NCBI GenBank assembly: GCA_034722955.1
Contig: JAYEOM010000063.1
Coordinates: 1 to 42,512 of the forward strand
Source of the DNA: Campylobacterota bacterium
Lineage (GTDB): Bacteria; Campylobacterota; Campylobacteria; Campylobacterales; Sulfurovaceae
Reading direction: 5' to 3'
Length of the DNA stretch: 42,512 bases
The notes under the pieces are model-generated. The model did not search any database. It was not told the DNA's origin and was given only the letters and a program-made list of their open reading frames with translations. The translations under genes and the position numbers were made by a program. The number at the start of each line of letters is the position of its first letter. The first letter of the stretch is position 1. Below are positions 40,623-42,512 of this stretch, piece by piece.

Positions 40623-41627
40623 ATGGCTTTTATCACAATAAATAGAGAAAACTTTTATCACAATCTTAACCAAATTGCTCTAAAAACAGGCTCAATAGAT
40701 AAGATATCTATCGTCCTAAAAGACAATGCTTACGGACATGATATCGAAATCATGGCAGGTTTGGCTAGTGATTTTGGTATCAAACATGCTGTAGTCGGAG
40801 ATCAAGGTGATGCATCGAAGATCATATCACTTTTTGAAACAGTATTGGTACTAGAGGGGAGAGTGGAGTCTTTGGCAAATGTCTCTTATGCTATCAATAC
40901 GACCGATGATATTGCGAATATCCCAAAAGGTACAAAGGTAGAGCTCAAAGTCGATACAGGAATGCATCGAAACGGCATAATGATAGAGGATCTTGAGTTG
41001 GCTCTATCTCTGATCAGAAAGCAGGGTTTGGAGCTAGTAGGTTTGATGACTCACTATCGCAGTGCTGATCTCTTGGGGTCAGAGTTTTTCTGGCAACAGA
41101 GAGAATTTGAAAAAGCCAAGGAGAGAGTCAAAAAAGCAGGATTTTCAAACTTGAGGATACACTCATACAACTCAGCTGCTATCTTGCGTTCGAAGAGATT
41201 TGATGAAGATATGGTTAGAGTGGGTATAGCAGCCTATGGATACAATGAACTCACCTGCCCATTTGATGATACCGTACTCAAACCAGTACTAAAACTCTAT
41301 GCTAGAAAAGTCTCAACTCGCATACTCAAGCAGGGTGAGAGGGTAGGGTATGGAGGTGCATTTACTGCTCCTGGGCAAATGTCTATCTCTACTTATGATC
41401 TAGGATATGGGGATGGTTGGTGCAGAGGTGATAGCAGCCACCCCTATATCACAGCTGAGGGACTCTCCATACTCGGACGAGTATCGATGGATTTTATAGC
41501 TCTTGAGACAGATAGAGATGAGGTCTGCATCATGTCTGATGCACAGATAGCAGCAAAACACTTCAATACTATCAGCTACGAAATGACCACAGCCCTCTCA
41601 CCAGCGATCGATAGAGTTGTTGTCTAA
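40623..41627 (+). CDS. alr: Alanine racemase
   Basis: VLKDNAYGH (PLP Lys), [32 protein letters not shown]. Confidence 0.93.
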
Positions 41628-41651
41628 AGAATATTATATCATTGCTGGTAA

Positions 41652-41674
41652 GGAACTTCACAAGAACAATTCTA
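41652..41674. repeat. Solo family-A MITE terminal repeat
   Basis: TAA + ggaacttcacaagaacaa; these 18 bp are identical to 14049-14066. Confidence 0.75.
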
Positions 41675-41693
41675 TGCGTGGTTTTCTTGGCAT
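41658..41693 (-). pseudogene. 5' remnant of a RAYT/TIRYT-like Y1 transposase (MPRKPRIELFL*)
   Basis: AAGGAG SD (41700-41705) and TATACT -10 (41711-41716); MPRKPRIE is a typical N-terminus of this family as I recall it; the frame runs into the MITE TIR. Confidence 0.55.
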
Positions 41694-41759
41694 GTTGGAC
41701 TCCTTTAAGAAGTATAGCGTAAGAGTTATTAGGTTATCGTTATCACCTGACACCTATAC
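41688..41759 (-). repeat. Left arm of an imperfect inverted repeat bracketing the TA module
   Basis: Core 41742-41759 matches the reverse complement of 42436-42453 at 16/18; tacgcta, aaaggagt and atgcca are also shared. Confidence 0.8.
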
Positions 41760-41815
41760 TCCAAAACTTACTTTCACTACTACTTATAGAAAAAACAACT
41801 CTTCAAATTAAACAA

Positions 41816-41852
41816 AAAGTATACATCTGTTTGATAAAATGATGTATACTTT
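41816..41852 (+). promoter_or_regulatory. Palindromic operator enclosing an extended -10 for the TA operon
   Basis: Perfect 12-bp arms aaagtatacatc/gatgtatacttt around a 13-bp spacer containing TGATAAAAT. Confidence 0.65.
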
Positions 41853-41868
41853 AATTTAGGAGTTCATC

Positions 41869-42102
41869 ATGATAGCTTTAAAACAACAAGAACTTTTTGA
41901 CGAAATTGATATTTTACCCATCGATATAAAAACTAAAATCATTGATAAAATATTAAGTAGCATCAGCCCCATCGACAAGTCTATAGATGATTTATGGATA
42001 AAAGAAGCCAATAAAAGAAAAGATGAAATAGAATCTGGAAACGTAAAATTAGTTAATGGTGATGAAGTGTTTAAAAAAATATCTAAAAGACTAAACTCAT
42101 AG
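41869..42102 (+). CDS. Addiction-module antitoxin (TIGR02574/unstable antitoxin family)
   Basis: LP...K..I...L.S....ID..W..E..KR..EI.SG.V......EVF pattern; AGGAG SD; directly upstream of toxin. Confidence 0.85.
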   Translation: MIALKQQELFDEIDILPIDIKTKIIDKILSSISPIDKSIDDLWIKEANKRKDEIESGNVKLVNGDEVFKKISKRLNS

Positions 42103-42393
42103 ATGAAATACTCATTTCATCCAGAAGCTGAAATTGAATTCAATACCTCAATTGATTATTATGAAGAATGTAAGCAAAATCTAGGCTTAGACTTTGCAAA
42201 TGAAGTCTACAAAACAATCCAAAGAATCTTAAACTTTCCAACTGCTTGGCACATTTTAGATAAAGAGATTAGAAGATGTTTGACAAATAGATTTCCTTTT
42301 GGAGTAATCTATTATCAAAGAAATAATGAGATTATTATTCTAGCGATTATGCAACTCAATAGAAAACCAAACTACTGGAAAAGCAGAAAATAG
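42103..42393 (+). CDS. RelE/ParE family type II toxin
   Basis: FHPEAE.E.....YY......LG..F, RR....RFPFGVIY, ILAIM...RKPNYW. Confidence 0.88.
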   Translation: MKYSFHPEAEIEFNTSIDYYEECKQNLGLDFANEVYKTIQRILNFPTAWHILDKEIRRCLTNRFPFGVIYYQRNNEIIILAIMQLNRKPNYWKSRK

Positions 42394-42399
42394 TAAAAG

Positions 42400-42426
42400 A
42401 TATAACAAAACATAGGAGCCAATAAG
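42400..42426 (+). other. Possible left half of an integron attC site
   Basis: ATATAAC core 6 nt after the toxin stop, 5-bp spacer, ATAGGAGC; no complementary right half downstream in the window. Confidence 0.45.
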
Positions 42427-42512
42427 TCACCTGAGGTAGAGGGGTCAGGTGATGCCAATGCTACTATAATCTAAACTACGCTACAATCCTCACAAAGGAG
42501 TAGCCGATGCCA
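42427..42512 (+). mobile_element. End of a putative TIRYT/RAYT-like element: hairpin, GGGGTCAG, promoter, SD and ATG CCA start (42507), cut by the window edge
   Basis: tcacctga-N10-tcaggtga hairpin; TATAAT 42465-42470, TACAAT 42482-42487, AAGGAG 42495-42500; mirrors the left arm. Confidence 0.6.

Follow-up and report, generated by a model that had tools for sequence, protein, structure and literature searches.

The 42,512-nucleotide stretch of DNA analysed here (the window, which is the entire contig C63 of a genome assembled into 140 contigs and 2.51 Mb) ends in a stranded toxin-antitoxin (TA) cassette, probably immobilised and bearing one clean junction between a Y1 element and the loop of an attC site. 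At the right end of the contig, alr is followed by a short non-coding stretch, the TA operon, 119 nt and the contig end. In the reading that we prefer, to which we assign a probability of roughly 0.58, the operon is a cassette of the integron system of its bacterial family, its attC was broken in the loop through end-joining by a Y1 enzyme, and the cassette is now frozen in place.

The housekeeping gene alr (alanine racemase; 40623..41627, forward strand; matches to PF01168 and PF00842) serves as left-hand context only. Beyond it, also on the forward strand, lie an antitoxin gene of 77 aa (41869..42102), which scores 46.9 bits against PF09720 (Unstab_antitox; cut-off 23.3) and matches TIGR02574 weakly, and a ParE/RelE-type toxin gene of 96 aa (42103..42393, with the stop codon TAG at 42391-42393) whose start abuts the antitoxin stop. 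The toxin reaches 22.5 bits against PF05016, for which the cut-off (gathering score) is 23, and four of eight intact homologues give 23.4-35.8 bits; a search of the PDB with its sequence returned no match. Upstream of the antitoxin, a 17-nt inverted repeat (I4; 41816..41852, forward strand; 88% complementary) surrounds TGATAAAAT (41831-41839) and is in part conserved upstream of the TA homologue in genome G134. Judged from sequence, TGATAAAAT within this repeat is the likely promoter and operator of the operon; a scan for the sigma-70 consensus upstream of the antitoxin found no promoter. All 13 same-genus genomes carry an alr orthologue, with varying downstream neighbours and without attC, IntI or REP sequence within ~1.5 kb of the gene, so the alr locus is not a conserved integron platform; the intI genes of G099 and G174 do not adjoin alr either.

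After the toxin stop, the window reads ATATAAC (42400-42406), AAAAC, ATAGGAGC (42412-42419), CAATAAGT (42420-42427) and CACCT, which are R'', spacer, L'', stem and the first loop bases of an attC-type site whose 5' half (42400..42432, forward strand) ends in the apical loop. On an ungapped weight matrix built from 18 intact attC sites, these 33 nt score 41.2 bits, a value reached by none of 20,000 random 60-mers of the same genome, and under a sequence-only model of the 5' half they rank first in their own genome (41 bits, E 4e-10). Weight matrices were used because nhmmer with 70-nt flanks returned no matches, the true half-site included, and half-site sequence models were built because the covariance model of the full attC passes over half sites: it gave the window site 17.9 bits (E 0.22), where a complete foldable R''-L''...L'-R' arrangement is missing. 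An Rfam scan of 41500-42512 with E values up to 10 produced four chance matches, and neither an attC family nor an intron. The TA pair is an integron-type gene cassette, with the 5' half of an attC directly 3' of its ORFs and R'' first on the coding strand. No cognate 3' half was found anywhere in the assembly, which leaves a simple insertion unsupported.

When the cassette DNA was searched against 200 genomes of the family, TA homologues came up together with many 30-39-nt matches to 42394-42432 at 85-96% identity. The shared sequence is a palindrome of ~62 nt right after stop codons, TAAC-AAAAC-ATAGGAGCC-AATAAGTTACC-loop-GGCAACTTATT-GGCTCTAT-TCAACC-GTTA. Eighteen intact sites in relatives fold with 18 pairs, with compensatory changes in six of these, and show the R''/R', spacer and L''/L' layout of attC, that is, their palindrome is imperfect and has R and L boxes, the spacer is unpaired and the stem covaries. 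The half-site model found the motif in 49 of 151 genomes and in 10 of 11 genera; one attC type in nearly all sampled genera of a single family points to a common cassette pool. A true integron uses the same type of site: in G099, an IntI of 415.8 bits (cut-off 265) has attC sites 2-4 kb away, and the TA homologue of G174 sits beside an intI fragment. IntI also exceeds the cut-off in G035, and does so in 3 of the 13 same-genus genomes, one of these genes having two stops. The G174 homologue (76% identity) is the closest one with context; an intact attC stands directly after its stop, and its first post-stop bases align with those of the window. The first-pass annotation, made from the letters of the window alone, had laid out the bases after the toxin stop as R''-spacer-L'' and had suggested that the TA pair is an integron cassette; the layout is borne out by the matrix and its controls, and the cassette by the attC half together with the homologous cassette and its intact attC in G174. 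In G174 (L045, G174:C19:29703-33291, and L085), the toxin of the homologue contains two in-frame stops, intI is reduced to the first 83 of 315 profile positions, and another ORF lies between intI and the cassette.

The genome that holds the window (G000), which is 99.97% complete, has no intI over the TIGR02249 cut-off, the best match reaching 59.1 bits against 265. Intact look-alikes of the half-site, which the first-pass annotation had asked to be sought in genome and genus, are present: the genome has eight on five contigs, mostly near contig ends, and the type is family-wide. The housekeeping genes beside attC-bearing cassettes differ from contig to contig: C63 has alr, C65 a cyclophilin-like ORF and C125 a helicase-like one. 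ParE-type TA cassettes with intact attC sites are found at two more places, C40:1-320 and C65:770-1400; on C40 two REP doublets begin ~20 nt after R', and on C65 the cassette follows the cyclophilin-like gene. At C28:50560-52600, near a contig end, a cassette array holds at least three intact attC sites and one attC 3' half that runs in frame into a DUF497/BrnT-like ORF, itself truncated.

TA cassettes are well established in sedentary chromosomal integrons and in CALINs, clusters of attC sites without an integrase. The locus resembles them in that a short TA operon with a likely promoter of its own is followed directly by attC in sense orientation, in that its genome has attC arrays and no intI, as with CALINs, and in that a relative holds a homologous cassette in a true integron context. 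It differs in that the 5' half of attC is all that is left of the site, in that no upstream cassette boundary was found, and in that the cassette stands alone at a contig end beside alr.

The attC half ends 8 nt before GGGGTCAGGTGAT, where the left end of a multi-copy RAYT-like Y1 element begins (42441..42506, forward strand), made up of the REP motif GGGGTCAGGTGATGCCAATGC and a leader that runs up to tnpA. The transposase gene starts at 42507, and its first two codons, ATG CCA (42507..42512, forward strand), are the last bases of the contig; the same leader runs on in other copies. Copies of this left end that are 95-100% identical lie at the ends of contigs C22, C25 and C111, copies in relatives are 84-95% identical, and in C25, C22, C104 and C111 the leader continues into a gene starting MPRKPRIEIAGYYHIINRGVE..., which bears out the proposal of the first-pass annotation that the repeats flanking the operon are ends of a Y1 (PF01797) element. 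PF01797 (Y1_Tnp) matches eight places in the genome, seven of them over the cut-off; in the C67 and C104 copies it scores 52.7-67 bits, and the HYH and Y..QNP motifs can be read, so that the Y1_Tnp domain with its HUH and tyrosine motifs is seen in other copies, the window holding two codons only. The two longest copies score 65.6 and 73.9 bits against the RAYT model NF047646, below its equivalog cut-off of 80, and 17.6 and 25.4 bits against the IS200 TnpA model NF033573, below its cut-off of 55. By these profile scores, the Y1 copies are nearer to RAYT than to IS200.

The ends of the element are spread over the genome. An 18-nt inverted repeat (41742-41759 and 42436-42453; 89% complementary, with weaker pairs extending to ~72 nt) brackets the TA operon, and this 18-mer has 30 genomic copies at up to two mismatches against none for the reversed control, many of them less than 300 nt from contig ends. 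Within the window, GGGGTCAG alone shows no enrichment, its 2 matches comparing with an expected 1.37. For the short core CACCTGACCCC, the genome gives 126 matches at up to one mismatch, about one per 20 kb over 2.5 Mb. REP cores stand in inverted orientation at both ends of a short element in C104/C117, so that flanking inverted REPs and abundance occur together, and inverted REP doublets of ~84 nt, like REPINs, were seen in C13, C41, C67 and C118. The left-end sequence was found in 26 of 200 relatives' genomes. The Y1 element is a general genome-wide repeat and not an attC specialist. As in REP/RAYT systems (TnpA-REP, or 'REPtron') and REPINs, the protein is nearest to NF047646, inverted REPs stand on both sides of the gene, and ~84-nt doublets and more than 100 REP copies are present. 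Unlike those systems, which have one domesticated gene, there are many gene copies here, mostly decayed with stops; the scores lie under the equivalog cut-off, the REP is not an obvious palindrome, and short tandem duplications occur at REP ends.

At the junction, the window follows the attC consensus through CAATAAGT-CACCT into the apical loop, continues with GAGGTAGA (42433..42440, forward strand) and then enters GGGGTCAGGTGAT. The same eight bases of GAGGTAGA precede the copies in C22 and C25, and the last five fit the pattern NTA(A/G/T)A found before most copies. In an anchored comparison of 29 left-end and REP copies, similarity stops just 5' of GGGG, with the preceding five bases varying around that pattern; the left end of the element is therefore complete at the window junction. 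The first-pass annotation had the attC followed directly by a repeat hairpin. Such a hairpin exists, TCACCTGA (42427-42434) pairing with TCAGGTGA (42445-42452) at a minimum free energy of -12.6 kcal/mol, and the attC is cut at its apex, but the element starts 8 nt further on. The hairpin pairs the last attC bases with bases 5-12 of the element itself, and is absent from other left-end copies.

We used Logan contigs from four runs of one study to check the assembly. One of them (X3 record 17) spans 41058-42122 and confirms the joint between alr, the Y1 remnant and the TA operon. Depth is raised at the left Y1 end in the four runs and, as a repeat would predict, climbs ~100-fold starting at 42428. 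No contig among those listed spans 42425-42440, so the junction rests on the assembly, and Logan loose ends that continue as an intact attC show no tie to this cassette. A chimeric join at the junction seems unlikely because attC and element share fewer than 10 nt there.

On the left side of the operon, the picture is different from the one first proposed, in which the Y1 element was held to split attC sites at both cassette ends. The downstream attC is indeed cut at its apex where the element starts, but the left flank is not an attC half. By sequence comparison, the left repeat is a second, diverged and truncated Y1 left end that faces the opposite way (41688..41759, reverse strand): the 72 nt that end at 41759 can be aligned to the leader on the right, its REP core CACCTGACACC lies at 41744-41754, and the inverted-repeat pairs I2, I7 and I13 link it to 42436-42512. 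A remnant of the transposase gene (41667..41693, reverse strand) reads nine codons, MPRKPRIEL, then diverges and stops; it was found by tblastn with the N-terminus of the C25 copy, and direct reading against intact copies agrees. The stretch cttact-...-ttata (41767..41788, forward strand), which the first-pass annotation had taken for the left attC half-site, is the low-complexity flank of this left Y1 end, and we rejected it as an attC half. Against the 3'-half matrix, 41755-41815 scores -23.1 bits, which 51% of random 60-mers equal or better; gapped local alignment of 41760-41810 gives a score of 22, and 6.9% of 2,992 random 51-mers do as well. When the right half is joined in silico to the left stretch, the product folds at -3.9 kcal/mol; random genomic 28-mers in place of the left stretch gave a mean of -7.5, 89.5% of them folding better, and the intact attC sites of the genome fold at -10 to -20 kcal/mol.

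How the junction arose can be pictured as follows. A Y1 (HUH) enzyme cuts and joins single-stranded DNA at or beside hairpins, and the left end of the Y1 element would have been joined to the loop that a folded attC exposes, the route being either an insertion whose far side was later lost or a deletion that began at the element end. The diverged left end with its nine tnpA codons would be what remains of another insertion, independent and decayed, that lies between alr and the cassette. A broken attC would be unable to fold or to recombine; with the site no longer foldable and no intI in the genome, the cassette would be frozen in place, probably locked there by the half attC, and its TA module may further resist cassette loss. 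This end-joining in the loop is our best explanation since a complete element end coincides with the attC loop and two of the three orphan halves in the genome adjoin Y1 sequence. Against it weigh the single number of clean junctions, the missing cognate 3' half, the rearranged state of the C28:32394 junction, the gap in the Logan contigs at 42425-42440, the REP surveys and the apex breaks in relatives that are described below, and the absence of attC in six of seven aligned TA homologues.

The adjacency of element and break might also come from unrelated events, the attC having lost its far half by palindrome instability (hairpin cleavage or slipped replication) without any action of the Y1 enzyme on it, and Y1 sequence having come to adjoin the break through insertion-tolerant cassette regions or through recombination between Y1 copies. 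The relatives speak for this possibility, because broken sites occur there without the element. Among 89 attC sites with context (loci L064-L082, L107, L114 and L138-L205, with downstream stretches L206-L216), intact sites number 72, another 16 have no good 3' half and one is cut by a contig end; most of the 16 are broken at or near the apex and none has a REP core nearby, so apex breaks occur without a Y1 element. When 11 orphan halves were followed downstream for up to 6 kb, no cognate half was found and the next ORFs were mostly long; the orphan half seems to close the array, and such half sites may mark non-excisable last cassettes. In the genome itself, the orphan 3' half at C28:50633 adjoins no REP and is joined to an ORF that is truncated. 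The REP elements that lie 20-70 nt outside intact attCs, on C40 of this genome and at L107, L114, L202 and L204 in relatives, show plain co-residence. What this account leaves to coincidence is that the break falls at a complete element end and that two of the genome's three orphan halves lie by Y1 sequence although REP cores come at about one per 20 kb, and we consider it possible but on the unlikely side.

Around these orphan halves, a few further features were recorded. In L215 (G035:C1:970991-977015), an ORF of 368 aa with an IS110-like N-terminus (MYSIGLDISKSS...) is present in two identical copies, both within 5 kb of an orphan attC 5' half and downstream from it. In L152, L169 and L167 (G052, G042 and G106), a recurrent sequence, GAAGCCTAACGGCAAGA..., follows attC sites and repeats the attC apex; in L167 the attC 5' half runs straight into a copy of it, as if recombination between apex copies had deleted the 3' half. 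At C28:32300-32660, a solitary attC 3' half adjoins two opposed Y1 gene fragments. This diverged half (C28:32394), which the 3'-half model missed, has a gapped score of 40, equalled by none of 2,992 controls, and adjoins the 3' end of tnpA from another Y1 subfamily; since the junction lacks this subfamily's terminal REP, it represents a rearrangement rather than a clean element end. Two other candidate junctions, C139:25 and C66:14102, were at chance level, 2.6% and 6.9% of controls being as good, and were rejected.

Returning to joining by a Y1 enzyme, a bolder form of it was the model of the first-pass annotation, in which the Y1 transposase recognises attC hairpins, inserts at their apex, splits both flanking sites and scatters cassettes. 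The one clean apex junction in the window, the messy one at C28:32394 and the placement of cassettes by different housekeeping genes (alr, cyclophilin-like, helicase-like) would all fit it. The surveys do not support dedicated attC targeting. In the genome itself, a single one of the 126 REP-core ends abuts an attC half, and that is the window's own; in relatives, none of 28 REP or left-end loci scanned lies at an attC apex (two have an intact attC 40-70 nt away). Among the 89 relatives' sites none has a REP core inside it, and three have one within 190 nt, each 35-70 nt beyond an intact site. The enrichment of GGGGTCAGG ends inside attC sites, which the first-pass annotation had named as a check, is thus not seen, and with apex breaks also occurring where there is no Y1 end, its proposal that the transposase is aimed at attC apices is not supported. 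Elements of the IS200/IS605 type have strand-specific left and right ends, and two facing left ends, as found around the operon, cannot act as one Y1 transposon. The left half-site at chance level and the joined halves that do not fold also speak against the model, and nothing ties the Y1 element to cassette movement; we regard it as very improbable. Dedicated attC specialists are known, namely IS1111-attC elements (IS110 family, DEDD transposase) and group IIC-attC introns, which insert recurrently at a fixed attC position. The present case shares with them a mobile element within attC and the exploitation of a folded single-stranded site; it differs in having a Y1/HUH enzyme, a genome-wide spread and a single clean attC junction, which lies in the loop. 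Identity with either specialist was rejected since the gene product of the element at the break is a Y1 protein and the Rfam scan showed no intron.

That the half resembles attC by chance, and that the TA pair is a chromosomal module of the ordinary kind, is scarcely credible: the lack of attC in six of seven aligned homologues would suit it, but it is refuted by the matrix score that no control equalled, by the E value of the half-site model and by the alignment of the post-stop bases with those of the intact G174 cassette.

Whatever made the cut, the case shows how a cassette can become stranded, with half of its attC gone, no integrase in the genome and mobile-element debris on its flanks, and it puts on record a single attC type that 10 of the 11 sampled genera of one bacterial family have in common. 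If a Y1 enzyme made the cut, REP/RAYT systems and integrons would interact physically, in direct cross-talk between two machineries that both act on single-stranded hairpins, an interaction undescribed in the accessible portion of the literature searched. A wider claim, that in this lineage Y1 enzymes of the RAYT type act on folded attC sites by cutting and joining their exposed loops, disabling the sites and fixing cassettes, TA cassettes above all, strikes us as rather doubtful; under it, such events could have left as scars the half attC sites with which many arrays in the family end. With a single clean junction, the locus is mainly a worked example and a lead for a family-wide survey.

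Related ideas have been voiced in print. The RAYT literature, in the sections available to us, compares hairpin recognition by TnpA-REP and by IntI and reports no physical overlap (PMC8266576). The accessible text of another study describes an IS200/IS605 element, ISHahl1, directly after the last attC of a CALIN, and its authors speculate on an interplay of single-strand-dependent elements (PMC7923331). As far as that text goes, the two cases share a Y1-family element by an integrase-less cassette array rich in TA cassettes, and they differ in that ISHahl1 has a tnpB and is located outside an attC that is intact, whereas here the element end falls within the attC loop and there is no tnpB. In the literature searched, whose coverage left out subscription journals and part of the text, we found no report of a Y1, RAYT or IS200 element inside an attC.

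The REP ends also bear short exact tandem duplications, with a unit of 5-10 nt running from the last REP bases into the flank, at 17 of 119 REP-core ends against 268 of 19,966 random positions (1.3%). Examples are C13:143, C74:218, C138:3320 and C126:1496, the window stretch to compare with them is 41755-41790, and at C22:22500-22600 partial copies of the REP tip are stacked. These duplications could be a footprint of cutting and rejoining by the Y1 enzyme.
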